From Amphiura filiformis (Eukaryota), in contig NC_092646.1 in NCBI RefSeq assembly GCF_039555335.1, positions 58,010,946 to 58,074,945 on the forward strand: a stretch of 64,000 nt of DNA, given 5' to 3'. The translations under genes and the position numbers were made by a program. Numbering within the stretch: position 1 is the first letter of the stretch; each line of letters starts with the position of its first letter. The notes beneath the pieces are model-generated. The model was not told where the DNA came from. It saw only the letters and a list, made by a program, of their open reading frames with translations, and ran no database searches. Of the stretch, positions 4,072-63,125 are shown in pieces.

Positions 4072-4239
4072 TGTGGTGATGGTTGAAGTTCCTAAATTGG
4101 GGAAAGAAAAATGGGAGCGACCTCATTAGTTTGAAGGGTCATTGGTATGAAAAGGGGTTTAGGGCATTTTAAGGTTAGGATTAAGTGGGGGTTAATGTTA
4201 GGGTTAAGGGTTAGGGTCAGTAGTAAGGTTAGGTTCCAA

Positions 4240-7489: not shown

Positions 7490-7798
7490 AGGACCAACCT
7501 GACTGACATCTATCCAATCCAGCGTTTCTTTGCCCTTATTCTTAGCCTGCATATCATCTTTCCATTCAGCGTCCTGTGCTTTGTATTTCTCCGCATCAGT
7601 AACCATCTGTTCTATCTCTTCTCTGGAAAGACGCCCTTTGTCGTTGGTGATAGTGATGTTATTCTTCTTGCCGGTGAGCACGTCTTGGGCAGACACATTG
7701 AGGATACCGTTGGCATCAATGTCAAAGGTCACCTCGATTTGTGGTACACCACTAGGTGCTGGAGGAATGCCAGACAGTGCAAATTTGCCCAAAAGATT
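7490..7798 (-). CDS. HSP70-family exon (C-terminal substrate-binding/lid region); the 3' boundary is uncertain
   Basis: The translation [39 protein letters not shown]...[29 protein letters not shown] matches the cytosolic HSP70/HSC70 consensus. An AG acceptor (catatgcag|AAT) lies at 7799-7801 on the minus strand. The sequence after AKN no longer resembles HSP70. Confidence 0.7.
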
Positions 7799-20881: not shown

Positions 20882-21584
20882 TCAGTTGGTTTTCCAAAAC
20901 CTTTTTCTACTTAATCGAGGCTGTGTAACTCCAAACAGACTTGCTCCACTTGGTTCTTCTATGGTCTTACGCTGTGCAGCTCCAAAAAGACTTGGTTCAG
21001 TTGGTTTTCCAAAACCTTTTTCTACTAATCGAGGCTGTGTAACTCCAAACAGACTTGCTCCACTTGGTTCTTCTATGGTCTTACGCTGTGCAGCTCCAAA
21101 CAGACTTGCTCCAGTTGGTTCTTCTGCAGTTGGTTTTCCAAGACCTCCAGCATACTCAGCATCAAGTCGACTGCCCATTGCAGATCCAAACAAATCCCCA
21201 GCATGCGGTGGCAACGATAGAGGTTGAGCTACAGTATCAGGAACATATGTTGGCAACGACATTGTCAACATAGCTGAAGCTAGGATATCACCTGTTGGGA
21301 AGCTAAATCCTGGAGGGGGTGGTGGAGGAGATGCACCACCAAGTTGCGGAGGCGGTGAGGGTGGGAGGCCAAATCCTGGAGGTGGATGAGGTGGAGGTGC
21401 ACCATCAACTGACAGAGTCTTTCTCCTGAGGTCTGGTGGTGGTGGAGGGCCAGCTCCTTGAGATGGGGGTGGTGGGGGTGGGATTCTGTGTTCAATGGGG
21501 CCTTTCAGGGTCAGAATACCTCTTTTACTCTTGGCCTCATGACCAACGTAGCAATCTTTCTGCCCCATGCCGACCATCACTCCC
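20882..21584 (-). CDS. Exon E6: actin-like continuation ([32 protein letters not shown]), then polyproline, then SLFG/FG repeats; terminated by an apparent frameshift
   Basis: The acceptor ctgcag|GGA resumes the actin sequence exactly after RHQ. A 232-aa ORF follows, with roughly 120-bp tandem coding repeats at 20817-21130 whose last copy carries a 1-bp insertion. Confidence 0.55.
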
Positions 21585-23396: not shown

Positions 23397-25464
<2,068 letters not shown>

Positions 25465-25670
25465 CTGGTGTCTTGGTCGACCTACTATACTAGGGAAAAC
25501 TACCCTAGGTGCATCGTCACCAGCAAACCCTGCCTTGGTCGTATCAAGCCCAAGGTCAATAACCACCACTGCTACATCTTCATCGTCAGGTGATAGCTCT
25601 TCCATTACTGTTATAGGTGGTGGCGGTGGTGGTGCAGGAATGTCAGGTGGTATTCCAGAGGATGCCAAAT
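25465..25670 (-). CDS. Exon E5: proline-rich linker plus actin-like N-terminal segment ([69 protein letters not shown])
   Basis: [24 protein letters not shown] is the actin N-terminal signature. The donor CAG|gtaagt falls exactly at the conserved actin codon-41 intron position. The acceptor is tcttcatctag|. Confidence 0.6.
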
Positions 25671-25917
25671 CTAGATGAAGATAGAGAAATGGTGGCTGAA
25701 TTAAACTGATAAAAATTGTCAACTACAAAAGTGTAATTTTCATATGTGTATAGACCACTTGACATGTGACGTCATTGCCTGGCAGTATGCGCACAAATTA
25801 TGGCAAAATCTTTCATCCATGCTATGTTAAAAGTGCTAGATAAGTCTCTATTATTATTACCATCATTATCATTGACATTGTTATTACCATTATCATTATT
25901 ATCAAATCACACTTTAC

Positions 25918-33936: not shown

Positions 33937-34329
33937 CTGAAAAAGGAAGGGAACAAAATTTAGGTTTTCCCCAATGAGGTAGAATCAAAGAGTACCAACT
34001 CTGCCACGTTTGCGTGTCGCTCATGGAGGCGGATTACTTCGCTATTCGCCCAGCAAACGATCCAAAGTGGGTGCTTGTTCACGTTCTGTATGTAACATGT
34101 TGTTCAAAAACACGATCCAAGCACTGTGTAGACAAACCTTAGTAACAAAAGATGCAAATTTGTTGTTCAATTTCGGCCCTCTCTCGATGAATGCAGGAGG
34201 TACGTTATCTACCCTCCATGATGAGCACCAAACCAAGATGGTGGACTTACATGTAGCATTACATATGGTACAATTTTGAGTCAGTAAACTTTAGTATCTT
34301 TGGTTTGTCCACATGTATAGGTCTATGTA

Positions 34330-37060
34330 TTTATACTTACTTCCAGGGTCTGTGATTGTCCAGGAGGACTCTTGGTTGGTTCCCATCCCATATAGGTATG
34401 TGTATCAATACTTACTTCTAGGGTCTGTGGTTGTCCAGGAGGACTCTTGGTTGGTTCCCATCCCATGTGGGTATGTATATTATCAATACTTACTTCTAGG
34501 GTCTGTGGTTGTCCAGGAGGACTCTTGGTTGGTTCCCATCCCATGTGGGTATGTATATTATCAATACTTACTTCTAGGGTCTGTGGTTGTCCAGAAGGAC
34601 TCTTGGTTGGTTCCCATCCCATATAGGTATGTGTATCAATACTTACTTCTAGGGTCTGTGGTTGTCCAGGAGGACTCTTCATTGGTTCCCATCCCATGTG
34701 GGTATGTATATTATCAATACTTACTTCCAGGGTCTGTGGCTGTCCAGGAGGACTCTTCGTTGGTTCCCATCCCATGTGGGTATGTATATTATCAATACTT
34801 ACTTCTAGGGTCTGTGGTGGTCCAGGAGGACTCTTCATTGGTTCCCATCCCATGTGGGTATGTATATTATCAATACTTACTTCTAGGGTCTGTGGTTGTC
34901 CAGGAGGACTCTTGGTTGGTTCCCATCCCATGTAGGTGTGTGTATCAATACTTACTTCTAGGGTCAGTGGTTGTCCAGGAGGACTCTTGGTTGGTTCCCA
35001 TCCCATGTAGGTATGTGTATCAATACTTACTTCTAGGGTCTGTGGTTGTCCAGGAGGACTCTTGGTTGGTTCCCATCCCATGTAGGTATGTGTATCAATA
35101 CTTACTTCTAGGGTCTGTGGTTGTCCAGGAGGACTCTTGGTTGGTTCCCATCCCATGTGGGTATGTATATTATCAATACTTACTTCTAGGGTCTGTGGTT
35201 GTCCAGGAGGACTCTTGGTTGGTTCCCATCCCATATAGGTATGTGTATCAATACTTACTTCTAGGGTCTGTGGTTGTCCAGGAGGACTCTTGGTTGGTTC
35301 CCATCCCATGTAGGTGTGTGTATCAATACTTACTTCTAGGGTCCGTGGTTGTCCAGGAGGACTCTTGGTTGGTTCCCATCCCATGTAGGTGTGTGTATCA
35401 ATACTTACTTCTAGGGTCTGTGGTTGTCCAGGAGGACTCTTCGTTGGTTCCCATCCCATGTGGGTATGTATATTATCAATACTTACTTCTAGGGTCTGTG
35501 GTTGTCCAGGAGGACTCTTCGTTGGTTCCCATCCCATATAGGTATGTGTATCAATACTTACTTCTAGGGTCTGTGGTTGTCCAGGAGGACTCTTGGTTGG
35601 TTCCCATCCCATGTAGGTATGTGTATCAATACTTACTTCTAGGGTCTGTGGTTGTCCAGGAGGACTCTTGGTTGGTTCCCATCCCATATAGGTATGTGTA
35701 TCAATACTTACTTCTAGGGTCTGTGGTTGTCCAGGAGGACTCTTCGTTGGTTCCCATCCCATGTGGGTATATGTATTTAGAGAATAAGCGATAGGAATTT
35801 TTATTTTGCCTATCCTCTACCGTGTGATAGGCGACAGGCAGGTCCAATATTTTGAGTAGTGGATGCCGCGCAGCCGGTATCCACTACGATAAAAATATTG
35901 GACCTGCCTGTCGCTCATCATAGGTAGAGGATAGGCAAAATAAAAATTCCTATCGCTTATTCTCATTCAGTTAAATATTATTTTAATAACTGTAAACAAT
36001 TTTTTTAAAGTAAAAACTAAGTTACCGTCATAAAAACTCCCCTCATTATAAAATGAACGAAACTGGTTTACAACTTCACGTATTCTCATTTTATGCAGTA
36101 CTGCTAGCGCGCTTTTGCGTATTCCGCACTAGTCTACGCATCCAGCGCGATACATACGCCGCATCTCTACACGCGTGTTACGCATTATCCAGACGCATGA
36201 TGACGTGGGGTCGCTCTCACGGCCTGATAGACGGCACCGAAATCATGCGATTGTCTAATCAGAAATGTGTCTACGAACTAGACCACTCCCACTGACTAAG
36301 AAATTATCAATACTTACTTCTAGGGTCAGTGGTTGTCCAGGAGGACTCTTGGTTGGTTCCCATCCCATATAGGTATGTGTATCAATACTTACTTCTAGGG
36401 TCTGTGGTTGTCCAGGAGGACTCTTGGTTGGTTCCCATCCCATATAGGTATGTGTATCAATACTTACTTCTAGGGTCTGTGGTTGTCCAGGAGGACTCTT
36501 CGTTGGTTCCCATCCCATATAGGTATGTGTATCAATACTTACTTCTAGGGTCTGTGGTTGTCCAGGAGGACTCTTCGTTGGTTCCCATCCCATGTAGGTA
36601 TGTGTATCAATACTTACTTCTAGGGTCTGTGGTTGTCCAGGAGGACTCTTCGTTGGTTCCCATCCCATGTAGGAGTGTGTATCAATACTTACTTCTAGGG
36701 TCTGTGGTTGTCCAGGAGGACTCTTCGTTGGTTCCCATCCCATGTAGGGGTGTGTATCAATACTTACTTCTAGGGTCTGTGGTTGTCCAGGAGGACTCTT
36801 CGTTGGTTCCCATCCCATGTAGGAGTGTGTATCAATACTTACTTCTAGGGTCTGTGGTTGTCCAGGAGGACTCTTGGTTGGTTCCCATCCCATGTGGGTA
36901 TGTATATTATCAATACTTACTTCTAGGGTATGTGGTTGTCCAGGAGGACTCTTTGTTGGTTCCCATCCCATATAGGTATGTGCATCAATACTTACTTCTA
37001 GGGTCTGTGGTTGTCCAGGAGGACTCTTGGTTGGTTCCCATCCCATATAAGTCAATGTAT
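34330..37060. repeat. Satellite B: 75/78-bp unit x about 30, in two blocks (34330-35785 and 36300-37060)
   Basis: The unit is tacttacttctagggtctgtggttgtccaggaggactcttggttggttcccatcccat(a/g)t(a/g)ggtatgt(gt)atcaa. ORFs are open on both strands (493 aa on the plus strand, 479 aa and 320 aa on the minus strand). Confidence 0.9.
35780..35964. repeat. 185-bp near-perfect palindrome interrupting satellite B
   Basis: agagaataagcgataggaatttttattttgcctatcctctac ... gtagaggataggcaaaataaaaattcctatcgcttattctc; centre at about 35872. Confidence 0.85.
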
Positions 37061-37237
37061 CAATCTCTTCTTTTCTCAGCAGCTCTTCTATGTCTACTGC
37101 TTTCATCTCCTTTTTGTCTTCGTCCTTCATAAATAACAATAAGAGTATGATAATAATGAAAACTATTATTATAGACAGTTTGTATTCTTTGGAGCATTTG
37201 CTTGATGATGAAAGCACTCATATGGCAACATGCAATG

Positions 37238-43508: not shown

Positions 43509-44149
43509 CTGTAAAATGTCAACAATTACAGTTATAATAATTACCGGTACGATTACACTCTGAATTTCAAGTACAGGACGTTTTTTGTTTGAAGTGGCTT
43601 GACCAGATTGACATCCCTCATCCCCCACCACTTTAACCCCTTCAAAATATAGATTTAAGGTCATATTGTTCTCATAACCCCAGTGAAATTCCAGGCCTGG
43701 AATATGTTTTCGTACAGGTGGTATGAAAAATAACATGGTAAAGCATTTTCCACCCTGATGTGGCAGTGATGTCAGTGCGCATTTCATTGGGCTCAGCTAC
43801 AAATCACGTACACATGCACACACTTAAAGATGCCGCATAGATGCGTGCACAAAACAGCTGCCTAAACGCTTTGCATCACTGCTACATCAGGGTGGAAAAT
43901 GCATTAACTAGGCGATTACATTAACACCTGAAGTTGTGTACTTTTGCTATGGGCCATTACAGTTTGTCCACTCTGAAATACAAAGTGACAACGCGCGCGT
44001 AAACAGTGCGTAGTGCTGCATCTCTGCTGCAGGTATGCGTGCCTTCCTTCAAAGTCGGCACAATGTGTGCGTCCGCGTCGATACTTTGTACTTCAGACTA
44101 GACAGACTGTAGGGTACACAAGTTTGCTTCTATAATCCAAATTGCTTGA

Positions 44150-46621
44150 GCAATTTAACTCCAAACTCAGAATAAGAATATTTGGGTGATTTGGCCTCAA
44201 TGTGAGGTAGAATACACAATGTGTTACACTTGGACCACAATCTGGTCATGCACCTTTAACTCCAAACTCAGAATACGAATGTTTGGGTGATTGGCCTCAA
44301 TGTGAGGTAGAATACACAATGTGTTACACTTGGACCACAATCTGGTCATGCACCTTTAACTCCAAACTCAGAATACGAATGTTTGGGTGATTGGCCTCAA
44401 TGTGAGGTAGAATACACAATGTGTTACACTTGGATCACAATCTGGTCATGCACCTTTAAGGGTGATTGGCCTCAATGTGAGGTAGAATACACAATGTGTT
44501 ACACTTGGACCACAATCTGGTCATGCACCTTTAACTCCAAACTCAGAATAAGAATGTTTGGGTGATTGGCCTCAATGTGAGGTAGAATACACAATGTGTT
44601 ACACTTGGATCACAATCTGGTCATGCACCTTTAAGGGTGATTGGCCTCAATGTGAGGTAGAATACACAATGTGTTACACTTGGACCACAATCTGGTCATG
44701 CACCTTTAACTCCAAATTCAGAATAAGAATATTTGGGTGATTGGCCTCAATGTGAGGTAGAATACACAATGTGTTACACTTGGACCACAATCTGGTCATG
44801 CACCTTTAACTCCAAACTCAGAATATGAATGTTTGGGTGATTGGCCTCAATGTGAGGTAGAATACACAATGTGTTACACTTGGACCACAATCTGGTCATG
44901 CACCTTTAACTCCAAACTCAGAATAAGAATGTTTGGGTGATTGGCCTCAATATGAGGTTGAATACACAATGTGTTACACTTGGACCACAATCTGGTCATG
45001 CACCTTTAACTCCAAACTCAGAATAAGAATGTTTGGGTGATTGGCCTCAATGTGAGGTAGAATACACAATGTGTTACACTTGGACCACAATCTGGTCATG
45101 CACCTTTAACTCCAAACTCAGAATAAGAATGTTTGGGTGATTGGCCTCTCTGTGAGGTAGAATACACAATGTGTTAACAACACTTGGACCACAATCTGGT
45201 CATGCACCTTTAACTCCAAACTCAGAATATGAATGTTTGGGTGATTGGCCTCAATGTGAGGTAGAATACACAATGTGTTACACTTGGACCACAATCTGGT
45301 CATGCACCTTTAACTCCAAACTCAGAATAAGAATGTTTGGGTGATTGGCCTCAATGTGAGGTAGAATACACAATGTGTTACACTTGGATCACAATCTGGT
45401 CATGCACCTTTAAGGGTGATTGGCCTCAATGTGAGGTAGAATACACAATGTGTTACACTTGGACCACAATCTGGTCATGCACCTTTAACTCCAAACTCAG
45501 AATAAGAATGTTTGGGTGATTGGCCTCAATGTGAGGTAGAATACACAATGTGTAACACTTGGATCACAATCTGGTCATGCACCTTTAAGGGTGATTGGCC
45601 TCAATGTGAGGTAGAATACACAATGTGTTACACTTGGACCACAATCTGGTCATGCACCTTTAACTCCAAACTCAGAATAAGAATGTTTGGGTGATTGGCC
45701 TCAATGTGAGGTAGAATACACAATGTGTTACACTTGGATCACAATCTGGTCATGCACCTTTAAGGGTGATTGGCCTCAATGTGAGGTAGAATACACAATG
45801 TGTTACACTTGGACCACAATCTGGTCATGCACCTTTAACTCCAAACTCAGAATATGAATGTTTGGGTGATTGGCCTCAATGTGAGGTAGAATACACAATG
45901 TGTTACACTTGGACCACAATCTGGTCATGCACCTTTAACTCCAAACTCAGAATATGAATGTTTGGGTGATTGGCCTCAATGTGAGGTAGAATACACAATG
46001 TGTTACACTTGGACCACAATCTGGTCATGCACCTTTAACTCCAAACTCAGAATACGAATGTTTGGGTGATTGGCCTCAATGTGAGGTAGAATACACAATG
46101 TGTTACACTTGGATCACAATCTGGTCATGCACCTTTAAGGGTGATTGGCCTCAATGTGAGGTAGAATACACAATGTGTTACACTTGGACCACAATCTGGT
46201 CATGCACCTTTAACTCCAAACTCAGAATAAGAATGTTTGGGTGATTGGCCTCAATGTGAGGTAGAATACACAATGTGTTACACTTGGACCACAATCTGGT
46301 CATGCACCTTTAACTCCAAACTCAGAATAAGAATGTTTGGGTGATTGGCCTCAATGTGAGGTAGAATACACAATGTGTTACACTTGGATCACAATCTGGT
46401 CATGCACCTTTAAGGGTGATTGGCCTCAATGTGAGGTAGAATACACAATGTGTTACACTTGGACCACAATCTGGTCATGCACCTTTAACTCCAAACTCAG
46501 AATAAGAATGTTTGGGTGATTGGCCTCAATGTGAGGTAGAATACACAATGTGTTACACTTGGATCACAATCTGGTCATGCACCTTTAAGGGTGATTGGCC
46601 TCAATGTGAGGTAGAATACAC
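44150..46621. repeat. Satellite A, block 1: about 28 copies of alternating 100-bp and 75-bp units
   Basis: The unit is gggtgattggcctcaatgtgaggtagaatacacaatgtgttacacttggaccacaatctggtcatgcaccttta[actccaaactcagaataagaatgttt]. Confidence 0.9.
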
Positions 46622-48423
46622 AGCGGTTTTCCACTTTTTAAGCCCAGTACTGGGCCAGTGTTGGGCAAGATCTAGCGGCACGGATTGAGCTATAAAAATG
46701 CCCCAATACTAGGCGGCAAAAGTGACACTTTTATTGGGCCAATTCTAGCGTACTCGCAATTGCCCAGTTCAAGCCACAAGTACTGGCCCAGTTCTAGTAG
46801 TACTACGGGCTGTCCCTAAAGTTGCCTGAAATTAAAATTATTTTCATGGGACGCCGTGTTTGGTTATCATGTTTATTGTATTTATTCTCGGAACCAGTAC
46901 TATTTACCCAAAAAGCTAACATTTAGCAGTATGAATAAGCAGTATTATAGACGTGTGAATTGGTTTGTGAGTTTGGCACAGCTTTAACTACTGAGTGAAG
47001 TTCAACACCGTGGTGTTTTATGTAACGGTAAGTAAATCATGACATTTTTTAATGAGTATGATACATGGATAAGCCGCAGTATGCATGTCATTGTATGCAT
47101 GTATCAATACTATCATTGTATCAATGTATGCATGGTATGCATAGTCACTGTAGTAGACTTGTAGTATAGCATGGCTAAGCCTAGAGCTTTTTGATTGTTT
47201 TATTTTTGTTTCAATTTCTCTAACCAGTTGTGTATGGCACCGTATAAATATCGTCATGATCATTAAGCTTAATCATTGTCAGGTAGGCCTAAAGTATTAT
47301 TCAGATTTCCTTTTACAAATTAAGCGTACTGCTAGCTGTCCAGCGCATCTTATTTTGCACATGGTCCAATGCACACGCTTGACGTCGCGCACGTATATGC
47401 GATGGTTAATTTGTAAAAGGAAATCTGAATATTACTTTAGTGTTCATACATACGTGTTATATTGGTCGATAGGCGGGCATAAACAACATTTATGCCCTGC
47501 TTTCTGGTCGTAAACAAGCCGCGTCAGAACCGATGAACGCCATGAGTAGGATATCTGCAGCGTATGCTTATGAAAGCTATTTACATAAAGCGCGAATGAT
47601 GTCTGCGATGTTCGTGGCGTCCAAACACGGTGGACTGAGCAAGTAAACGTTTTCTTACAATTAGCAATGGAAAAACTTTTAAAAAGGATTAGAAATTGAT
47701 AGTTTTTAGACTAAAATGACGATATTTTTTAGTTGTGGAGGAAAATAACAGCACTCAGAATGTTGTGTATGTATGAACGGGGTTCATTCATATATTTTCA
47801 GGACTAAACGTTGTTTATGCCCTCGGGCATAAACAATTGTTTAGTCATGAAAATATATGAATGAACCCCTAAATCATCAGTGACAGTGGCGTGCCATGCC
47901 CCCCACTTTTGTTGGTCATTCGGGGGAAAATGTTAAAAACGTCAAAATTTGCTGCTAATCAGACTCCATTCGGGGAACTTAACAACCTGCCCACCCCCCC
48001 CCCCCCCCCACCCCACTTTCAATGTGCTGGCCACGCCACTGGTCATCATAGGTAGATGGGAGAAATTTTGTCCCCGGAATTTTGTTTGCACAAACCATGA
48101 CTGGGCCGCTATTTAAAACGCTATACTGGCAAAAAGTGCCAAAGAACTACATGTACGGTAGTGTAGGCCTACCATTCTACTATCTTTCTTCAACTCATTT
48201 GACTCGTAACAATTTGATAGAGAGAGACTGGGGAGTGCGCGCATTTGTGAGCACAGTGCATTTTTTTATGTCGAGCATATCTACATGTAGGCATTAAACC
48301 ATGTTAACAGCTGAAATCTGGGCGATAATGCTGACGAAACTTCGACCAGGCACAATTAGTGACCTGGTGAACGAAGGGGCCGCCGTGGATAGCTGGTCGG
48401 GGATTTTTTGCAGGACAGTCAAG

Positions 48424-48890
48424 TGTAGCCAACAATCAGGCTTATTACCCTGATTGGAACCGACTGTAACATCAAGGTCTTTTGTCATTGGTCATCTGCC
48501 CTGCCATTACCAGATGAGCCACGGGAAGAGCAGAATTATTTTTTTTTGTCCTGCGAGGAATTGAACCGGGACCTCTTGCACAAAGTGTGCTTTGCGATAT
48601 TATGCGTGACTGACACATGCTTTTATGAATTTATACAAGTGTAAATTGTGACTTGTAGCCAACAATCGGGCTTATTACCCTGATTGGAACCGACTGTAAC
48701 AAGGTCTTTGTCATGGGTCATCTGCCCTGCCATTACCAGATGAGCCACGGAAGAAGCGGAATTAATTTTTTTTGTCCTGCGGGAATTGAACCCGAGACAT
48801 CTTGCACAAAGTGTGCTTTGCGTGACATGCGTGACTGACACATGCTTTTATGAATTTATGCGAGTGTAAATTGGGACTTTTGGGCAACAA
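48424..48890 (-). repeat. Two tandem copies (about 232 bp each) of a tRNA-derived SINE-like unit
   Basis: There is a near-identical duplication. The minus strand shows GGGTTCAATTCC and GGTTCAATTCC T-arm-like boxes. Confidence 0.55.
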
Positions 48891-49755
48891 AAACAATATT
48901 AAATTTCCTAAAATTGTAAAATGTTGCTAATTAAAACAGTGTTTAATTAAATCGAATATGAATGAGAATAAACAATATGATATAAACCCAAGGTAGGGGG
49001 TCACTGTCATCAAAAGCATGGACTCTGATTGGGACTCCCTTTAGTCTATATAAAATTGATGTTTTGGTTCTTGCCCTCTCCCTCCTGGCCTCATCAGTGT
49101 CTGGGGTTTGTCAGATTTTTTTTTCTTTTCTCAAAACATTAATTTTATACGACCTTACAAGCCTTGGGCCATTTGATTCGAGCACTTCAGGCTACAAAAA
49201 GTTGGGGGTCAACAACAATAACTGGGCAAAAAATATTTCCGTCAGTACATTCACAGGTTTGGGGTGCCAATTTGTATCCTTTCCCCTGCGCACCACAAAC
49301 CCGGATTAGCACACAGGCACTTATAAACAATGAGTGAAGCTTATCACAGGTAGGCAGGCTCACATCACACACTATAGGTGGTGCTATTCGTCCATAGGGA
49401 AGTGGAATGTGCCTGTACGGTCCAAAAATGGCTTTACTGTGGGGCTCAATGGAAAAAATCAATATATTTTGACAACCAAAACCTAAATGACTTTGACTTA
49501 CTTTGGTACTGGCATAATACTGGATTCATAACATAGTGCAATATATATGATCCACCAAGTCGACACTCGTTAAAGCGCAAATGCAATTTGTGTGTAAATC
49601 AAGACCAACCAAAACAGCTTTCTTGCAGTAAAGAATAGGAGGTCATCTGGGGTCACATACAGTAGTGTACATTGTACATGTGCCTACTGTCACAATTTCA
49701 CACACAAAACTTTGGGCAATTTGGTGACGCTATTTTTGTCTGTAACTTCAAAACA

Positions 49756-50048
49756 GGGCTGTCAACTCTCACGCATTGGCCGTGAGTCTCACGCATTGGG
49801 TCACTTTCTCATGGTCTCACGCCAAGGTAGTATAATCTCATGCCTGAAAGTAAATCTCACGCAAAAAGCTGAAAATTGAGTAAAATCTCACGCATCGCCA
49901 TGAAAAAATTGTTGTTGCTACCCCCAGCTTTTCACATTTTCGAGCGCCGTGGCTTAGATAATCATGGGTCAAAATGAACATTGAAGTCGGCAAATCCCGG
50001 TACGCCTGTCTCACGCCAAGCAATTCCAAAAAGTTGACAGCCCTGCTT
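49756..50048. mobile_element. Small MITE (TIR CAGGGCTGTCAAC) with six internal tctcacgca motifs
   Basis: cagggctgtcaactct at 49756 pairs with ttgacagccctg at 50037. Confidence 0.6.
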
Positions 50049-50261
50049 CAAAAGTATATGCACTAGAAACATCATTGACCCCTTATTGTTTAGGTAATTT
50101 GATTCTCTTTCAAATGAAAGAACTTTCAGCTAAAAAATATTAAACTTCAAAATTTTATGAACATCCCTATCACAGGCATGAGACTGCACTTTCCTAAAAA
50201 AACTAAAATGCAAGTACCCAAAAGCCATTGCACTATAATCATGTCAAAAAGTAAATTTTAA

Positions 50262-52170
50262 CCTAGGGAGTGTTCAGAAATACACTGGTGGGGGGCTGGA
50301 AAATATACACTATGACCAGCTCTTAATAGGCGGGAATTATTTGGTTTTTGTTACTGCGCTAGTCAATCAAGTTCCAACTTACGCACGCGTATATTCACAA
50401 AAGCACGCGTCTTAACGCAAAGCGCAGTTCGCGTAACTGCTGCGCCCAGCTGTGTGTCACAAACCAGTTCACACGTCTATAATACTGCTTATCTATATCA
50501 AATTATCAATGTTATGAGTCCCCGCCTATTAAGAGCTGATCAGAGTATAGGGGGTCATAAAATTTTAGGAGTTCTGAATAGGGGGGTAAAAAGTTTTGGG
50601 TGTATATGAACAGGTGGGGTTAAACAATTTTCGGTACGTAGGAGGGGGTAAAAAACTTTTGTACCAGTATTGAACCACAACAAAAGTGCATTTGATCCAG
50701 TGTTAAAAATTGCCTGGCCTCCAGACTTGTACCCGAGTCCAGCTCATCCGAGTCCGGATTGGAGTCCAAGTCCAGTGGTGACAAGTCCGAGCCAAGTCCG
50801 AGTCCAACAAAAATAAGCCCCAAGTCCAGCTCAAGTCCGGACTCGGTCAGAGTTCATGCCATTTTTTTGGGGGGAGGGGGGTCATTACTGACAAAATTTT
50901 GAAAGAAGGGGTTCATTTGGTATAACATTTTGAAAAAAAATGGATCACCGGGTGGAACATAATTTCAAAAAATGGAGCAAAATTTAATATTTTGTTTCTA
51001 ATTTAAAAATTTGACAGTTTCTGCTTTTAAATTATATGGAATTTTGAAGATAAAATTGTACAAAAAGAAGGTCATTGGTCAAAGATCACTACACCCCACC
51101 ACATATTGCTCTCCTATACAAACCCACCCTACCAAACCCCACCCCACCCCATCAACCAACCATACATATTTCACTTCAAAGACACATACATGTACAGGTA
51201 ACTCCTGAAGGTACTACATGTATCAGACCACCTGTATCAGAAAGCAGTCAGGTGGGGGTATTTGCGTGTGTGCCGGGGTACGGGTGTGACACACAGCTAC
51301 ACACTGCATGTATTGTCAACTCACAGTGCCATGCCCTATAGGTTGTGTGCAGCATACATGTAAATGAAGGGCAATGTATTCAAATATTATAGAAAAATAT
51401 CATCATCATCATCATCATCATAACTGAAAGTTACCTTTTCAGAAATATTTGGCTGTGTGATATTAATTAATATTTATAAATTATAAACATCTCAAAATTG
51501 GACAAATGTCCCAGACAAATGTGCAGTGAATAGTGAGCACACAGACACCCTAGCCCTCAGGGATGAGTACCAATTTACTGGGTGGGAGCTGAGATGTATA
51601 TGGCCCAGTCTCTCTAAAAACAAAACCGGTATGTATTTGCAACTGCAATTTCTTTTTTCGTCTGTGCCACTGTGCTACGCCCCTGAATTTTGGGCTAAAA
51701 TGGTCTAAGATTTTTGCGTGTCACCGCGCAACAAAATTCCCAGTAAAACCAGAACAAAATATACTCGTCCCCGACCCCCCTAAATTATAATGTTTCCGTC
51801 GCCACTGATTCCAATCATAAATGTATAGTTTATTAATACTCAGGGGGTTCAGTGGGTTGCATAAACATACTTATGCTACTTTAATTTGGAACATTTCCTC
51901 AATTCCACATATTCTATACCAATGAAATGAGTACTATTTCATTGCACATGAATACAAATTTTAGCATCATTAATATGTTTCCTCTGCCATTTGATGTAGA
52001 ATGGTACATTATGATGGGGGGGGGTTAAAATAGTTTTGAACCTATATGAAGGGGGGTCAAAAAAGTTGTGGGTTCGCGAAGAGGGGGGGGGTTAAAAAAA
52101 ATTTCGACATGAAAAATAATTTTTTCCAGCCCCCACCAAAGTATTTCTGAACACTCCCCTATAAAGGATC
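50262..52170. mobile_element. Putative 1.9-kb TIR element
   Basis: gggagtgttcagaaatac...ctggaaaa at 50265 is inverted relative to ttttttccagcccccaccaaagtatttctgaacactcccc at 52125-52165. There are subterminal ggggg(t)aaaaagttttg repeats. Confidence 0.4.
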
Positions 52171-55100
52171 CACAGGCTGTAAGATTCCACTGCCCCTATT
52201 AAATACATGATAAAAGGCTACCAAAAACTTTCATAATTTTGTAAAAAACTTAACAATTTTATGTTAAAAAGTATTTAGAGAGAACTTAGAATGTGTGAAA
52301 ATTTGAAGACCCAATTTTGAAAAAACCTTATTTCCCAGGGAAAGATCTGAGAGCAGGCCACACCATGACCAGATGATTAAACTAAGCCATGCAGTATGTA
52401 TTTCTCAAACACTATCCATAGTTTGTTCTTATTAAGCCCATTGCACGGTTCTGCCATTCATGCAAGGAGAGCCTCGATCTGGCAGCATGCATGAATGGGA
52501 ATTGAACCAGTCATATAACATTGCGTAAAGTTACGTAATACTTCCTTTCATGTCTATTGCCAGTTCAAAGTTCTCCTCGCATATGGCGGAATGGTGCAAT
52601 AGGCGAATTGAACATGTTGAATGGGTTCTATGGATGAAGGAGGCATGGACTCCAACATGTTTCTTTGCATCTGGGCCAGTGATTTATAACAAAACTGTAT
52701 CTTCAGGCAATACTGAATTTTGTGCTTGTTATTTTGTTGCAATTTTTGCCTAAGTCACTTGTGTGGGTGTGCATGCATATTTTCCTCATCATGTTCATTT
52801 GCTATTTTTAAATGATTAATTTCAGTATGCTTAAATTTATACATGTACATCTCTTGTCTTTTATTTTCTGGGGTATTAACTATAATAAGGGTCTGGTTTT
52901 TGTTTTATTATTCAGGTGCAGATCACTTCAGATCACAGAAGACTTGTACATGTATCAATCGAGGACATGTTTTCTGCATATTGATCATCATTAAATACAT
53001 GTAAATTGATGTAATGCTGCAATACATAAAGGCACCCTGGTGGAAGGTGTCAGAAGTCACAACTGACAGAAATTTATGCAATGAAATTGCTATTTTGACC
53101 AGACTAATAACAGAACAAAATTAATGTAAGTGTGAATCGCTGAATTACTGTAAGTCACAATGTATGGTTTTAAATGAATTTCTTTATCAAACCTGATTTG
53201 TTTTGCATATATTTGTTTACACATGTCCCATCTTAATGAAATCCAGCCAAGTTCATCAATTGTGCCTGAAGGACAACAGAGCAATTTAAAGATATTAAAT
53301 CTCCTACAAAACACCACAGTTAAGCAGTAAGTGCATGGGTAAGATATAGTAAACTTGTGGATTTGCTGACCAAATTCATTTGCCCGGTACCGTAATTAAG
53401 TTGTTCTGGGACACCCTGTACATCTACATGTATGTATTTTCTCAAATGCATTGCTAGAATTGGTATGGTACCCTTCTTTGGTAGCAAATTATCCACCCTC
53501 TTTTCTGTCATGGACTAGTAAAGGTGGGTGACTAGATTGCCAGCCTCATCCCGGAGCCTCATCCCCCCACTTAATTGGTATCCCATCAGTATGCAGATTT
53601 TGTTATCAGGTGAAATCTCATAATTTCTCATAACCCCAGTGAAATTTTAGGACTGAAATAGATAGTTGAGGCAGTATGAACAAAAACATGGTAGTTGAGT
53701 GGTTATAACCCCAGTAACAGGGCGCAAATTTGCCTGCCCTTTTTAGATCGGCCGAAGGAAAAGACCTTATGGCATCATGAGCACAGCATTTTTATACAGT
53801 TAGTTTGGAATTGGGTGGAGTTAAAAATGGGTCCAGAGCATAAAATCTCAAAACAGCGCCCTCTCCCGAGGGACGGATAACCTTGTGGACAGTTCGCTAT
53901 GGTCACGAAATTTACAGGGTAGAATTATGTTGATCCACCCTTACCGTGTGCTATTAGGCAACTTCCTATTGAAACTCCTTCAAGATGTACTGTTCTATGA
54001 AAAACTGGAATACAGATAATTCTAGAATCCAAATCACTGGAGCAAATTTGGAATAAGAATGTTTGGGTGACGTGCCTCAATATGAGGTAGAAAACAAAAA
54101 GTGTTACACTTGGACCACAATCTGGTCACACACCCTCAAGATTTTTAATGATGTTGATTTCAAAATATCATTGAACAACAAGGTTTAAAATAGTCGGGGT
54201 TGTTGTCTACTGAAGATAACACTATGCTTGAAATATCATTAGTGAGTAGTGTAATGTAACAAATAAGATGGACTGTAAAAATAATACATAGGATTGAAAG
54301 TGCAGCCTGGGAAGTGCAAGGATTTTAAGAACATTTTACACTATAACTTGACAGGCTTCAGCTGTGGATAACAATAATTTCACAGGCTTCTGCTGTGGAT
54401 AATAATAATGAAATTGTCCAACAACTCTGTTTATAACTTTTGTATCAATATTGTTATTTTGTTGTTTCAGAAAGGACCGTCAGAAAGTACCATGACTTGA
54501 TCAACAGCGTTGACAGTGCCATGGTGGCAGTGAAAGTAGTCGATTGGGATCACTGAAAATCAATATCATGGAGACCTCACATCTTCCACTGTAATGCTTG
54601 TTAAAATGCTCGGACTCTACATATCCTTAGCCTTCACTATGATAGGAATGCATGCCTTTCAGACCAATTGCAGCTACATGTACCAACCAGGCTGGAATGC
54701 CTTGGACACTTGAACACAAAGTGGAAATATACTAGTACCTTTATTTCCAAGCAAGTAAATGTGAAGCTGGAAAATGTGGAAAATAGACTTTTAAACTCAA
54801 AAATTTCAGAAAACTGTTGGTGTTCTACATACACAATCAGTATCATGACTTCCAATTGGTGGAGAATCAGGAAAGCAATCACTTTATTGCACAAATATTC
54901 TCACAGGATAGATTAGCAGAATATAATAAGGTGGTTGAAAATCCTCAGTAATGCTATGAAACATTTTTAATTCTGGATTGTGAGGGTAACAGATTATCTG
55001 ATTAAGAAATAAAGGGTAAATCCGTCACTCGGCGGAAAAGCCTCATATGCACTTTTGGCCATTGAACATATGAATAAAGCCTTGTAGGTGTAGACTTTAT

Positions 55101-56299
55101 ATTGAAGAGTTTGCTTCATCCATGTTCAAGGGCCAAAGTACATGCAGGAAAAAAGTCATATTTACTTTTGGCCCTTGAACATGGATAAAGCCTTGTAGGT
55201 GTAGACTTTATATTGAAGGGTTTGCTTCATCCATATTCAGGGGCCAAATGTACATATGACAAAATATTTATACTACCCTAAAATCAGAAAGGTTCTACAT
55301 GAAATAAACTTGAGACTGAAAAGAAGACTGAAAAGAAGCATGATCATTTATTATGCACCAAACATGAAGGTACATGTTTTATACATTTATGTCACTCTAG
55401 GATTTATGACACCTAATGATGATATTAATGGTTCAATCCTAAATACTGAAGGTCAAATCTATTAAAAAGCAGATTTAAGATAAGATGTGAAAATTGCAAT
55501 TTTGTTCAAACCTAATACAAGGTTGATTTTTAAATTTCAATTATATTTGAAATAACTGCACTTCATTGAGCGAGTCTCAGTCTCCATTATTTTTTTAGGT
55601 CAAGTAAAATAACATGTATATTGTCCCTTCCCTCATCCATTTTTGGCAATTTGTTCAAGCTAGTGGTAGTAATACCGTCAAAAATATCAGGGCCTCCACA
55701 TTTTTATGTGTTGACAAAGCCTTTGCAATTGAAATTTTACACAGAAATGAATAGTAAATTTGTAACAAATAATAACTGCTTCCAGACAATATACATGTTA
55801 TTTATTTTACTTGGCCTTAATATGTAATCTTCCAGGACTTATCAGGCAAATATAATAACCCTGGAATTACGGGCTATTGGGCTATGTGATTGCAAATTGT
55901 TTTTATTAATGCCTTTTTTAATAAAAATTTGGGCCAAAAAAAAACCTGTTTATATTTTTTTTGGGGGGATTTTCTCCAAAAAATAGTATTTTTGCCTAAA
56001 TTTGACCTCACAGATGAATCCATCAAGTTATGAGGATGAGGCCCAAAAATGTTCATAATTCCTGGGTTAAAACCACCCATTAACTCTTTCAATGACATTG
56101 TAAAAAACAAAAAGGGGGTTCAAGGCTTATTTGGGGATTTTTGTACGGGGATGTACCACACTTTCAGATGCTGATTCTACCTACTTCTTGCTGTTTTTAC
56201 CACCCCGTCAGTATACTAATTGCCTTGGGCGCTTTTAGGGGCACTTGTGGTGGGGTCTCCCCTGTCAGTCCGAAACACCGTCAATCCGAACCCCTGTCA

Positions 56300-58320
56300 G
56301 TTCGAAAGTCATTTCAGAAAGAAACAAATTTTGCATAATTTCAGAAAAGGAACTTTTTACAAAGACGTCATTTCAGAAAAAGGCGACTTTTTTAAAAGGA
56401 TGTCATTTCAGTAAAAGTGATTTTTTTAAAAGATGTCATTTGAGAAAAGGCAACTTTTAGTCAGAAAAAAAAATATATTTAAAGACATTTAAAAAATTGG
56501 TGACTTTTTATTTAAAAAGAAGTCATTTCAGAAAAAAGCGACTCTTTTTAAAGACGTCATTCCAGAAAAAAAGGTGCTTTTAAAAGACATTATTTTAGAA
56601 AAGGTGACTTAAAAAGAAGACATCATTTCAGAAAAAGGCGACTTTTTCAAAAAGAGACGTCATTTCAGAAAAAAGGTTGACTTTTTAAAAAGATGTCATT
56701 TGAGAAAAAAGGCTACATTTTATAAAAAGATGTCATTTCATAAAAGGCGATTTTTTTTTTTAAATACGCCATTTTAGAAAAGGCAACTTTTTCGGAAAGA
56801 TGTCATTTTTAAAAAGACGTCATTTCAGAAAAAGGTGACCTTTTTAAAAAGACGTGATTTCAGAAAAAGCGACCTTTTTTAAAAAGACATTTCAGAAAAA
56901 GGTGGCTTTTAAAAAGATGTCATTTGAGAAAAAGGCTACTTTTTATTTTAAAAGATGTCATTTCAGAAAAAGGCGACTTTAAAAGACATTTCAGAAAAAG
57001 GCAGCTGTTTTAAAAAGAGATTTCGTAAAAAAGCGACTTTTTAAAAAGACATTTCAGAAAAAAATGTGACTTTTTATAAAGACGCCATTTCAGAAAAATG
57101 TGACTTTAAAAACGTCATTTTAGGGAAAAGGCTCACTTTTTTAAAAACGTCATTTCAGAAAAAAAGGCGACTTTTTTAAAAAGATGTCATTTCAGAAAAA
57201 GCAACCTTTTTAAAGACATTTCAGAAAAAAGGGGACTTTTTAAAAAGATGTCATTTGAAAAAAAGGCTACTTTTTATTTTAAAAGATGTCATTTGAAAAA
57301 AAGGCTACTTTTTATTTTAAAAGATGTCATTTCAGAAAAAGGCGACTTTTTTAAAGATATTTTAGAAAATGGCGGCTATTTTAAAAAGACATTTCAGACC
57401 TTTTGTAAAAAGACATTTCAGAAAAAGGTAACTTTTAAAAGACATTTCAGAAAAAGGCGGCTGTTTTAAAAAAAGACATTTAGAAAAAACGCGACTTTTT
57501 AAAGACGTCATTTAAGGAAAAAAACAGGAAAAAACAACTTTTAAAGACGTCATTTCAGAAAACGGTGACTTTTAAAAGACATTTCAGAAAAAGGCAGCTG
57601 TTTTAAAAAGACATTTCATAAAAAACTACTTTTAAAAAAAACATTTCGGAAAAAAAATGTGACTTTTTATAAAGACGCCATTTCAGAAAAAAAGGTGACT
57701 TTTTTAAAAAGATGTCATTTCAGAAAAAGCGACCTTTTTAAAGACATTTCAGAAAAAAGGTGACTTTTTTAAAAAGATGTCATTTGAAAAAAAGGCTACT
57801 TTGTATTTTAAAAGATGTCATTTGAAAAAAAGGCTACTTTATATTTTATAGATGTCATATCAGAAAAAAGCAACTTTTTTAAAAAGATGTCATTTCAGAA
57901 AAAATTTGACTTTTTTTAAAGACGTCATGTCAGGAAAAAAAAGCAGACATTTCAGAAAGGCGACTTTTTATAAAGACGCCATTTCAGAAAAATGTCACTT
58001 TTTAAAGACGTCATTTTAGGGAAAAGGCGACTTTTTAAAAAAGATGTCATTTCAGAAAAGAAGAAACTTTTTAAAAAAGACGTCATTTCAGAAAAAGGCG
58101 ACTTTTTTTAAAAAGTCGTCATTTCAGAAAAAAGGCAACTTCAGTAAAAAGACGTCATTTCAGAAAAAAAAGTGATTTTTTCAAAGATATTCTTTAAAAA
58201 TGCGACTTTTTAAAGACGTTATTTCAGGGCAAAGGCAATTTTTTTAAAGACATCATTTCAGAAAAAGGAGACTTTTTTAAAGATGTCATTTCAGAAAACA
58301 AAAAGCAAGACTTCCTTTTT
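56300..58320. repeat. Satellite C: about 35-bp minisatellite (aaagacgtcatttcagaaaaaggcgacttttttaa) x about 55
   Basis: The periodicity is clear. Most units carry GACGTCA, which is 7 of 8 positions of the CRE palindrome TGACGTCA. Confidence 0.85.
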
Positions 58321-59526
58321 GGCAGAACCCCAAAAGTCCGAAGCCATGTCAGTCCGAAACCCCGCTAAACACAGGGGCTAAACAAAAACGACTTAGATGA
58401 AAAAAAGATGGCATTTTAGGAAAAAAGCTTAGGCCTTTTTTTTTTTTTATAAAGACGTATTTTTAGGAAAATGCTACTTTTCATAAAAAAGCAACCTTTT
58501 AAATTAAAAAACGACTTTTAGTAAAAATTATTTTTTGTCGGAACCCCATCAGTCTAAAACCCCACATCGTTTTTGTAAAAAAAAAATTATAAAGACTTTA
58601 GTTTTAGAAAAAGGCTTAACATTGACAAAAAAGAGATAGTGAAATTTCCGATTCACACCTTTAAAATATGGCCTAGCCTAAAATGGATTTTTTATTTACA
58701 AATAGGCCTATGGCCTAGCTCAAAAATTGCCTTGCACTTGCTTTTTCACTGAGAAAGAACACTGATCGAAACCGTTAAACTAATAGGCCTAGGCCTAAGC
58801 TGATCCAAATAAATTGCATTTCGGCTACACACAAGGCATGTACTGTAGGCCTACCGTATCATTTTTTTGAAGGCCGTTACCATTTACAACTCTCATTGTA
58901 CTGATTCCTTATTTAGGCCTACTCGAACGTTCAAAAAATAGGGTGTTACATAATTTATACACTATATATATACAGTACAAGTTGGAATAGACATATAGTC
59001 TTGTAGACGTAGGCCTGGTATTCGTGCATTTGCTATGCCTATGCGTATGCATGAGGCTTGGCAAAGCCAGGCTTGTTTTTAATATAAATTGCTTAAAAGT
59101 TGCAATTTATATTATACGAAGGCTCAGCATCGGGGCCTATAATTCATATCCACAACGAGGAAGTTCTAATATTATTTAAAAGCCTAAAAACTGGCTTCCA
59201 AATCCAGACGCGTGAACATGGTGAAACGGGTGAAAAAACTCAAAACATAATTGATTGGGAACTGTTTCGCTAGTACGAGCGCGTCACCCACAAGTACTTG
59301 GCCAGATCTGGTGAAATAATTACTGGGCCAGTCAAAGTCGGCTGGCACTAGGCACAGATCCGGCGCAATTGCGAGCCCAATACGTGGCGCTAGTAGTTGC
59401 CCAGTACTAGCCGACTTTGTCTTGCCCAGTGCTAGCGCTGACTTTTTCTAGCCCAGTACTGGTGCTAGTACTGGGCGAGTGATAAAGCGGCTTATTACTG
59501 GCCCAGTACTGGTAGAAGTTAGCTGT

Positions 59527-60960
59527 GTACACAATGTGTTACACTTGGACCACAATCTGGTCATGCACCTTTAACTCCAAACTCAGAATACGAATGTTTG
59601 GGTGATTGGCCTCAATGTGAGGTAGAATACACAATGTGTTACACTTGGATCACAATCTGGTCATGCACCTTTAAGGGTGATTGGCCTCAATGTGAGGTAG
59701 AATACACAATGTGTTACACTTGGACCACAATCTGGTCATGCACCTTTAACTCCAAACTCAGAATAAGAATGTTTGGGTGATTGGCCTCAATGTGAGGTAG
59801 AATACACAATGTGTTACACTTGGACCACAATCTGGTCATGCACCTTTAACTCCAAACTCAGAATAAGAATGTTTGGGTGATTGGCCTCAATGTGAGGTAG
59901 AATACACAATGTGTTACACTTGGATCACAATCTGGTCATGCACCTTTAAGGGTGATTGGCCTCAATGTGAGGTAGAATACACAATGTGTTACACTTGGAC
60001 CACAATCTGGTCATGCACCTTTAACTCCAAACTCAGAATAAGAATGTTTGGGTGATTGGCCTCAATGTGAGGTAGAATACACAATGTGTTACACTTGGAC
60101 CACAATCTGGTCATGCACCTTTAACTCCAAACTCAGAATAAGAATGTTTGGGTGATTGGCCTCAATGTGAGGTAGAATACACAATGTGTTACACTTGGAT
60201 CACAATCTGGTCATGCACCTTTAAGGGTGATTGGCCTCAATGTGAGGTAGAATACACAATGTGTTACACTTGGACCACAATCTGGTCATGCACCTTTAAC
60301 TCCAAACTCAGAATATGAATGTTTGGGTGATTGGCCTCAATGTGAGGTAGAATACACAATGTGTTACACTTGGACCACAATCTGGCCATGCACCTTTAAC
60401 TCCAAACTCAGAATATGAATGTTTGGGTGATTGGCCTCAATGTGAGGTAGAATACACAATGTGTTACACTTGGACCACAATCTGGTCATGCACCTTTAAC
60501 TCCAAACTCAGAATAAGAATGTTTGGGTGATTGGCCTCAATGTGAGGTAGAATACACAATGTGTTACACTTGGATCACAATCTGGTCATGCACCTTTAAG
60601 GGTGATTGGCCTCAATGTGAGGTAGAATACACAATGTGTTACACTTGGACCACAATCTGGTCATGCACCTTTAACTCCAAACTCAGAATATGAATGTTTG
60701 GGTGATTGGCCTCAATGTGAGGTAGAATACACAATGTGTTACACTTGGATCACAATCTGGTCATGCACCTTTAACTCCAAACTCAGAATATGAATGTTTG
60801 GGTGATTGGCCTCAATGTGAGGTAGAATACACAATGTGTTACACTTGGACCACAATCTGGTCATGCACCTTTAACTCCAAACTCAGAATATGAATGTTTG
60901 GGTGATTGGCCTCAATGTGAGGTAGAATAGAATAGAATAGAATAGAATAGAATAGAATAG
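59527..60960. repeat. Satellite A, block 2, ending in (GAATA)7
   Basis: Same unit; the microsatellite lies at 60925-60960. Confidence 0.9.
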
Positions 60961-61215
60961 ATTTATTAGTGGAGGCGCACTCCAAACACAATCTTACATG
61001 GCAGTGTAACCAAGCTCAACATGACCGAAAAAATGTATGAACCATATCACTTCGCAGCAAAACTGCAGCCACAAAAAGGCGCAAACTGACAAGGTTACAC
61101 AACCTTGAAGTGATATAGAAAATACATTAGTACAATTGAGCAGAATTACACTGAATTGCATAAAATTGGTGACAAAAACACAAACAAGCAAAACAAAAAG
61201 GATAAAAACTGAAAG

Positions 61216-61557
61216 TTATGAACCACCACAAGGGTGGCAATTGTCTCGATGACAAGGCCAATGTTCAGATTGATGACGAGTTGAACAGTACTTTACAGTT
61301 TTACATCTAGCACAAAAACGGAGACCAAACTTGTTTGACGAATCTGCCGAGCAAGTAGGCAGAGCACAAAAATGCAATGAGTCATTGGCGTCCGGAATTC
61401 CAGGAGTAACCATAGAAACGCATGGCAAAGATGGTGTCAAAAGTTCAGAATTGGTTGCATATGTTGAAATTGATGATGAATTACTTGAAATTGGAGTTGA
61501 AATCTCACAATGTGTTACACAATGTGTAACACAAATGTGTAACAATGTGTAATACAC
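61216..61557 (-). CDS. ORF ending in a MYND-type zinc finger (CALPTC...FCARCKTVKYCSTRHQSEHWPCHRDNC)
   Basis: The spacing C-x4-C...C-x2-C...YCS-x2-HQ-x3-W-x2-H-x3-C fits the MYND consensus; it is the HQ variant seen in the EGLN-type MYND. The ORF lies between satellite blocks and its N-terminus derives from satellite-like sequence. Confidence 0.4.
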   Translation of the reverse strand: MYYTLLHICVTHCVTHCEISTPISSNSSSISTYATNSELLTPSLPCVSMVTPGIPDANDSLHFCALPTCSADSSNKFGLRFCARCKTVKYCSTRHQSEHWPCHRDNCHPCGGS

Positions 61558-62405
61558 AATGTGTTACACTTGGACCACAATCTGGTCATGCACCTTTAAC
61601 TCCAAACTCAGAATATGAATGTTTGGGTGATTGGCCTCAATGTGAGGTAGAATACACAATGTGTTACACTTGGACCACAATCTGGTCATGCACCTTTAAC
61701 TCCAAACTCAGAATATGAATGTTTGGGTGATTGGCCTCAATGTGAGGTAGAATACACAATGTGTTACACTTGGACCACAATCTGGTCATGCACCTTTAAC
61801 TCCAAACTCAGAATACGAATGTTTGGGTGATTGGCCTCAATGTGAGGTAGAATACACAATGTGTTACACTTGGACCACAATCTGGTCATGCACCTTTAAC
61901 TCCAAACTCAGAATATGAATGTTTGGGTGATTGGCCTCAATGTGAGGTAGAATACACAATGTGTTACACTTGGACCACAATCTGGTCATGCACCTTTAAC
62001 TCCAAACTCAGAATAGGAATGTTTGGGTGATTGGCCTCAATGTGAGGTAGAATACACAATGTGTTACACTTGGACCACAATCTGGTCATGCACCTTTAAC
62101 TCCAAACTCAGAATACGAATGTTTGGGTGATTGGCCTCAATGTGAGGTAGAATACACAATGTGTTACACTTGGACCACAATCTGGTCATACACCTTTAAG
62201 TTAGTGTTTTCTATATCCATGGTGATTGGCCTCAATGTGAGGTAGAATACACAATGTGTTACACTTGGACCACAATCTGCACCTTTAAGTTAATGTTTTC
62301 TATATCCATGGTGATTGGCCTCAAGGTGAGGTAGAATACACAATGTGTTACACTTGGACCACAATCTGGTCATACACCTTTAAGTTAGTGTTTTCTATAT
62401 CCATA
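61551..62405. repeat. Satellite A, block 3 (uniform 100-bp units with degenerate terminal units); it abuts the donor of the vWA exon at 62461
   Basis: Same unit. Confidence 0.9.
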
Positions 62406-62460
62406 GTAATTCCAGACAATAATAAATAACAAAGCTACTTCCATTTTTACCTTAGTACAA

Positions 62461-62721
62461 AATGGCACATATCCATAGACAACTTGTCGAGATCCACTAA
62501 ACAATGAAGTGATCTGACTGGGTGCTTGAATTGGTCTTGGTGCGTGGTTATCAAACTGTTGCCATTCCACACTGACTGATGTCAACACCGGATGAGAAGA
62601 TTTGTTCAGTTGAGACTTGATCTTTCCTTCCCATTTGGATTTCACTTTGCTGTCAAAGAACTGGAATGCTCCAGCACCGACTCGTGCAAGCGCCCTCAGT
62701 AGATGACGATTGGCTGTGGAA
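62461..62721 (-). CDS. Next exon of the VWA5A-like gene (SSTANRHLLRALARVGAGAFQFFDSKVKSKWEGKIKSQLNKSSHPVLTSVSVEWQQFDNHAPRPIQAPSQITSLFSGSRQVVYGYVPFCTK)
   Basis: Its phase is compatible with the exon at 63126. The acceptor is atttatctcag| and the donor AAG|gtaaaa. It encodes the end of the vWA domain plus following conserved region. Confidence 0.65.
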
Positions 62722-63125
62722 CTGAGATAAATGCCATAAAACACAATTACCAAAAAAAGACCGAAACCTTATTTCTTTCTCTCTTACAGTTACAGTTGAT
62801 CGCTGAACAATAGGCCCTCAATTCACTCAACAAGGGAGGCGGCTTACGTCACAACTTGGCAGAAGATCCCTCAGAGGTTTGGCTCATCTTGACCTGTGGC
62901 ACAACATCCGCATCACAAGTCAACAAACTTTTGCCATGCTAACATCAGTGGGCCTGATGATGCATCCGAGATAAGATGTGAAATATTGCCACTCATCAAA
63001 ACATAAGTCCAGTAGATCAAATTATAATATCTCAATGCAAGTTCATACTTTCGTATAATACATATAGTTCAAAAAATGTGTATTTCACGATAAGTTTTCA
63101 GTTTTAATTATCAAGACATTCTCAC

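Follow-up and report, generated by a model that had tools for sequence, protein, structure and literature searches.

The 64-kb window (the whole stretch of DNA that was analysed) looks eukaryotic, with introns, satellites, a G+C content of 30-45% and exons of actin, HSP70 and VIT-VWA genes. A VIT-VWA (VWA5A-like) gene on the minus strand contains a long intron, and in this intron lies a short ORF that encodes a MYND zinc finger (Table 1). A preliminary description of the locus had placed the ORF between satellite blocks and within a putative intron of the same-strand VWA5A-like gene; both placements are borne out by the mapped intron boundaries and by the satellite arrays found on either side.

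Table 1. Features of the intron of the VIT-VWA gene and of the block inserted in it (coordinates of the window)
Feature	Coordinates	Strand	Remarks
Phase-0 intron of the VIT-VWA (VWA5A-like) host gene	43509..62450	-	18.9 kb; donor AAG|gtaaaa 62451/62450; acceptor ttttacag|GCA 43509/43508
Satellite array, low-coordinate side of the insert	59528..60929		100-bp and 75-bp units
Inserted block	60930..61554	-	625 bp; its deletion leaves a monomer identical to the satellite consensus (100/100)
(ATTCT)n microsatellite tail	60930..60961	-	directly after AATAAATCT; expansion in none of the other 45 monomers
3'UTR-like segment	60962..61215	-	ends in AATAAA (60962-60967); 207/241 aligned positions identical to the L002 3'UTR
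ORF	61216..61557	-	113 codons, stop codon 61216-61218; Pfam zf-MYND E 5e-8
MYND zinc-finger core (ORF residues 64-107)	61237..61368	-	CALPTC...CARC...YCS..HQ...W..H...C; 8/8 ligand positions
About four degenerate 12-mers CACAATGTGTTA (satellite motif) at the 5' junction	61506..61550	-	ORF codons 1-17; only here
Satellite array, high-coordinate side of the insert	61551..62383		100-bp units; ends ~65 nt into the host-gene intron

The host exon before the intron ends with ...GYVPFCTK and the next one starts at 43508 with ATLKAMIAGKEV; homologous protein fragments read across this junction (...CT[KQ]|ATLKA..., e.g. ...CTQATLKA...). The host exon in the window matches VWA_3 weakly, its 61%-identical homologue P0001 matches VWA_3 clearly, and VIT exons are found upstream in a related contig (L001). 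The host gene fits the family of VWA5A-like (VIT + VWA_3) genes, whereas the MYND fragment is foreign to the architecture of this family, as no MYND occurs in the homologues across the junction. In L001 the same two flanking exons (79-86% nucleotide identity to the window) are ~1.5 kb apart, and the equivalent intron has no MYND by tblastn, no blastn match and no satellite. The absence of the MYND fragment from the L001 intron indicates that it is lineage-specific and lies outside the conserved gene, with the caveat that L001 could be a paralogue rather than an orthologue. The host exon at 62451-62724 (minus strand) is continuous in the window, and its L001 counterpart is split by ~680 bp (9457-9559 and 10241-10411); the split falls between ...KSKWEGK and (I/V)KSQL..., an intron presence/absence difference between close relatives.

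Satellites have enlarged the intron in the window some twelve-fold. Its contents are two 100/75-bp satellite arrays, namely the array that holds the ORF (59528-62383) and a further array of the same satellite (44154-46622), along with an AT-rich minisatellite of 33-38 bp (56338-58298) and other repeats. The sequences that flank the two arrays on the outside are weakly similar to each other (46633-46679 versus 59441-59491, 78%), and the similarity contains GCCCAGTACTGG.

The 113 codons of the ORF extend to 115 when counted from stop to stop. Its first in-frame ATG is codon 49, and the listed 'start' is a GTG, which is valid only in the bacterial code and is an artefact of that code. That the ORF carries a MYND finger with the HQ variant, as the preliminary description had read from the spacing of its residues, is upheld by a significant match to the Pfam zf-MYND family (PF01753), which scores 33.3 bits where the gathering cut-off is 22.7; on their own, the C-terminal 52 aa reach 35.1 bits. 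The window has 1197 stop-to-stop ORFs of at least 30 codons, and when this number is used as the multiple-testing factor the E-value becomes ~6e-5, so the match is not due to chance. The HMM alignment spans only positions 7-39 of the profile because the first knuckle is C-x4-C (CALPTC) and not C-x2-C. Eight zinc ligands are present in the MYND spacing (C4 + C2HC): C64, C69, C82, C85, C91, H95, H103 and C107, arranged as C64-x4-C69 ... C82-x2-C85 ... YC91 ... H95Q ... W100 ... H103-x3-C107, together with the signature residues Y90-C-S and W100.

Two deviations from the MYND pattern are seen in the ORF, the Cx4C first pair and a His in place of the sixth Cys (the 'HQ' at ligand 6). An exhaustive HMMER search of 1.84 billion representative proteins gave 309 matches at E <=0.001; of the best 150 of these, 74 combine Cx4C with a His at ligand 6, more than any other subtype. 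As so many of the best matches share the combination, the Cx4C knuckle is no defect, and residues 64-107 make up a complete MYND finger. The nearest solved structure by sequence is the MYND domain of SMYD2 (PDB; E 2e-4). The MYND fingers of PDCD2 and EGLN1/PHD2 likewise have a His-Gln at ligand 6. Judged by its residues and their spacing, the ORF is a genuine and complete coding sequence for a MYND zinc finger. It resembles the Cx4C/HQ subtype of MYND fingers in its score over the cut-off, in all eight ligand positions, in YCS and in the conserved Trp, but differs in being a 96-codon fragment with neither an N-terminal partner domain nor a start codon. MYND fingers in general are zinc-bound protein-protein interaction modules, and the domain in the window, if ever expressed, would by analogy be expected to act as such a module.

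The ORF is part of a larger block with sharp boundaries. Because deletion of positions 60930-61554 restores a satellite monomer exactly (100/100), the block is an insertion into a pre-existing monomer, and the satellite predates the fragment, not the reverse. The 24-mer across the break point is intact in the 45 other monomers, all of which are uninterrupted at this site. Within the block, the unique segment (60962-61505; 544 bp) is single-copy in the window, and it is bounded by the (GAATA)n run and the 12-mer run, which are found nowhere else in the satellite arrays. The tetranucleotide AATA at 60926-60929 and again at 61551-61554 may be a 4-bp target duplication; the surroundings of the insert show neither terminal repeats nor other signatures of a transposon. 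The satellite origin proposed earlier for the N-terminus of the ORF holds, but the satellite-derived part is 17 residues long (codons 1-17; 61506-61557) and not 12. The 12-mer repeats also give a sub-threshold Rfam match to ES056 sRNA (61479-61568, minus strand), which we dismissed as almost certainly a chance match, since its 30.8 bits are under the gathering score of 43. A literature search for the satellite sequence and the sample accessions returned nothing.

Only one specific relative of the ORF was found in protein sets of ~5.8 billion and 1.84 billion sequences: P0015, a 258-aa protein with a C-terminal MYND. P0015 and the ORF are 53% identical over their last 62 aa and end alike (G-x-S-stop), and the two proteins share the pattern DSL..C..P.C..ADS..FGLRFCxRCxTVKYCST..QS.HWP.H...C....G.S-stop. 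Nearly all other library matches share the generic finger only (35-45% identity), and the MYND fragment in the window is at most 53% identical to any known sequence. A word-indexed protein search with the ORF gave no match, and with the alignment of the ORF and P0015 it gave P0015 only; neither the 113-aa nor the 65-aa version of the ORF has an exact match on record.

P0015 is encoded by a complete ORF on two ~1.2-kb contigs, L002 (JGI 3300002927) and L003 (Logan SRR5078291). L002 consists of a ~125-nt leader, the 258-aa ORF (with a basic stretch and the C-terminal MYND), a ~290-nt 3'UTR, AATAAATCT and a microsatellite; the 3'UTR runs to ...CCACCAATAAATCT and is followed by (AAATCT)n up to the end of the contig. 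The ORF is contiguous in L002, and L002 may be a cDNA. No Pfam domain was found in the N-terminal half of P0015, and an AlphaFold2 model of the protein, built from an alignment of two sequences, is poor (mean pLDDT 44.9) and unusable for fold comparison.

The similarity between L002 and the window is not confined to the protein. A DNA alignment of L002 positions 788-1186 with window positions 61329-60958 (minus strand; E 4e-36) runs from the MYND core through the stop codon and the whole 3'UTR-like segment and ends at AATAAATCTA, where both sequences turn into a microsatellite at the same base, (ATTCT)7 in the window and (AAATCT)n in L002. At the other end, the N-terminal ~150 codons of P0015 have no tblastn match anywhere in the 64-kb window, and therefore the window holds only the 3' part of an L002-type unit. 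The window copy is thus like P0015/L002 in the FGLRFCxRCxTVKYCST motif, the C-terminal end, the 3'UTR (86% identity) and the AATAAATCT that precedes a microsatellite; it differs in lacking residues 1 to ~150, including the basic KKKKK...KKKR stretch, in the repeat of the tail, (ATTCT)n versus (AAATCT)n, and in ligand 6, a His in the window copy and a Cys in P0015.

The 86% identity refers to the aligned columns (207/241) of window positions 60962-61215 and L002 positions 902-1190; when gap columns are counted the identity is 68%, against 53 +/- 1.2% for shuffled sequence. The 3'UTRs contain a 34-nt block with a single difference, TTTCGGTCATGTTGAGCTTGGT[T/C]ACACTGCCATG. Among the 60 alignable codons, identity between the window and L002 is 60%, 72% and 48% at the first, second and third positions, respectively, and the Nei-Gojobori estimates for the coding part are dN 0.44 and dS 1.37. 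This codon pattern shows that the MYND family has evolved as a protein under purifying selection, and the comparison of 86% identity with a dS of ~1.4 shows that conservation is much stronger in the 3'UTR than at synonymous sites. This leaves two readings, a UTR that acts as a module in cis or a UTR whose history differs from that of the coding sequence. The 3'UTR had no match in an Rfam search of positions 59000-63000, and the two 3'UTRs yield only a weak consensus fold (-6.9 kcal/mol), two sequences giving such a comparison no power.

The 3'UTR motif GGTCATGTTGAGCTTGGTNACAC had no matches in metagenome, prokaryote-genome and viral collections. As L002 itself was missed by the metagenome scan, the organisms of interest are hardly represented in these collections. 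When metagenomes were scanned with a protein pattern, all that came back were generic MYND proteins of protists (L004-L010), which are similar in the finger alone and have no 3'UTR similarity. In all the collections searched, the family of the MYND unit has two members, the window copy and P0015/L002.

The preliminary description had left three options for the ORF: an exon, a domesticated fragment or a decayed gene. The last of these comes close, but a resident gene decaying in place does not fit, because excision restores the monomer, the homology to L002 stops at the 3' end of the unit and the 5' half is missing; these features argue for the insertion of a 5'-truncated copy. One could suppose that a complete MYND gene was once nested in the intron and that its 5' part was overwritten by satellite expansion, given that satellites can spread over adjoining sequence and that the ORF and 3'UTR are intact and in the sense orientation. 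This is barely credible, however, as excision of the block leaves a 100/100 monomer, the mark of a satellite older than the fragment, the N-terminal half is untraceable in the window, and the L001 intron is 1.5 kb long and empty of both MYND and satellite. The related case of a satellite growing around a resident gene is ruled out by the same excision test.

The best explanation, which we hold to be probable, is that 60930-61554 is a 5'-truncated, probably RNA-mediated and non-functional copy of a small MYND gene unit, inserted in the intronic satellite. The source would be a small unit of ~1.2 kb that encodes a protein of ~258 aa with a C-terminal MYND finger. Of this unit the copy would have retained the last ~96 codons (a Ser/Thr-rich linker and the complete MYND), the stop codon, a ~250-nt 3'UTR with AATAAA and the microsatellite tail, and its target would have been one monomer of the 100-bp satellite array that already existed in the 18.9-kb VIT-VWA intron. 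The mechanism may have been target-primed reverse transcription by a microsatellite-tailed LINE, starting from the 3' tail and stopping early. An RNA-mediated insertion anchored at the 3' end is suggested because the 3' end is exact, the 5' half is missing, the insertion is clean, and repeat expansions occur at the two junctions only. The fragment itself lacks a start codon, a promoter and the N-terminal half; its reading frame continues upstream solely by the chance that the satellite 12-mers contain no stop in that frame, and the MYND frame is presumably intact because the insertion is young. Most likely, the MYND fragment in the window is non-functional. It is from these features that we infer an RNA intermediate, the action of a LINE and the lack of function.

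The block resembles 5'-truncated retrocopies and dead-on-arrival non-LTR insertions in its exact 3' end, truncated 5' end, clean insertion and microsatellite tail, but differs from them in having no poly(A) tail and a duplication of at most 4 bp (AATA), so the classical hallmarks of a processed pseudogene are incomplete. A microsatellite tail in place of poly(A) fits a poly(A)-independent LINE better than L1-type retroposition. Such LINEs seem to exist in the genome, as the window contains a LINE-like fragment (10151-10919, minus strand) with an (AAAT)n tail: its ORF (10440-10919) resembles, by eye, the C-terminal end of a reverse transcriptase (no Pfam domain), and its 3'UTR of ~270 nt ends in the tail at 10151-10171. 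The tails of the CR1 clade are short ATTCT-containing repeats. No reverse-transcriptase partner with the same tail as the MYND unit was found. The (ATTCT)n tail could also be a local expansion rather than a tail borne by the element, since it merges with the satellite's own ...TATTCTACC.

The missing poly(A) tail and the short duplication would suit a capture at the DNA level, in which the 544-bp piece was used as filler in double-strand-break repair within the satellite, or was brought in by a satellite-carrying DNA transposon or Helitron-like element, and nothing was reverse-transcribed at the target site. A near-palindromic and possibly fragile motif, TACACAATGTGTA, marks the position of the break, and the weak 78% motif found on the outside of both arrays is a hint that a larger element may contain them. 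We regard such a capture as unlikely, and rate it below the RNA-mediated model, because a random DNA fragment is not expected to end exactly at the 3' end of the unit, whereas on its 3' side the fragment stops at the very base where the L002 unit ends (AATAAATCT, then microsatellite); the insert is, moreover, free of visible terminal repeats and transposon signatures. A Helitron-type 3' end (hairpin + CTRR) was looked for by eye and rejected, as the CTAA of the window is replaced by CCAA in L002.

Several features run counter to the reading of the block as a dead copy: none of the eight ligands is lost, the frame is intact for 96 codons, the orientation is sense, an AATAAA is present, and there is one in-phase AG. 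The fragment could accordingly have been exonised as an alternative last exon of the VIT-VWA gene, spliced from the donor at 62451 to the AG whose last base is 61504 (exon from 61503 on) and polyadenylated at the AATAAA at 60962-60967, ~250 nt past the stop codon. The intron is of phase 0 and this AG is the sole one in phase 0 after the upstream stop; with the insert on the host strand, the frame open and the MYND core intact, the product would be a truncated VIT-VWA protein with a C-terminal MYND. We consider this quite improbable: the acceptor is poor (10 pyrimidines out of 20) and satellite-derived, MYND is found in none of the homologous VWA fragments, and the insert is absent from L001. 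The exon option of the preliminary description is unsupported on similar grounds, as homologues join the flanking exons directly, the ~1.5-kb L001 intron has no MYND, and the only in-phase AG is poor. For annotation, the ORF at 61216-61557 should be neither called a gene nor added to the VWA5A-like model.

Under the preferred reading, that of a 5'-truncated retrocopy, the nature of the source unit can be taken a step further. It is possible, if on the doubtful side, that the L002-type unit is itself a small non-autonomous retroposon that encodes a MYND finger and is moved, via its conserved 3'UTR and tail, by a microsatellite-tailed LINE. This is proposed because the 3'UTR is 86% identical in the face of a dS of ~1.4, because both sequences switch to a microsatellite at the same base, and because the window copy combines 5' truncation with a clean insertion. 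The unit would then be comparable to ORF1-only derivatives of LINEs, except that it encodes a MYND finger, and the window copy would be a dead-on-arrival insertion. A full-text literature search for a transposon family encoding a MYND finger (non-LTR elements, ORF1) found none; if the source unit is mobile, a MYND-finger protein joins the short list of proteins encoded by non-LTR retroposons.

The locus offers a neat and datable case of insertion into a satellite monomer, in that excision restores the monomer exactly. With the insert, an intron has also acquired a sense-oriented AATAAA and an intact protein-interaction domain, from which an alternative terminal exon might one day arise.

Other repeats and gene pieces were observed elsewhere in the window. 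A 75-bp tandem repeat at 34318-37064 (~36 copies, with a higher-order period of 303 bp) has open frames on both strands, yielding ORFs of 493 aa on the plus strand and of 479 and 320 aa on the minus strand. Another tandem repeat, with a unit of 170 bp and 8.7 copies (24062-25538), overlaps the ORF of an actin N-terminus (25426-25722, minus strand; Pfam Actin, E 5.5e-12), and a second actin-like piece (20882-21580, minus strand) is fused in frame to proline-rich/FG-like repeats. An isolated HSP70 fragment at 7487-7831 (minus strand; positions 446-538 of the 599 in the Pfam profile) represents an exon or else one more truncated copy of a gene. Interstitial telomeric repeats similar to TTAGGG occur as short runs at 3367-3393 and 4169-4217.
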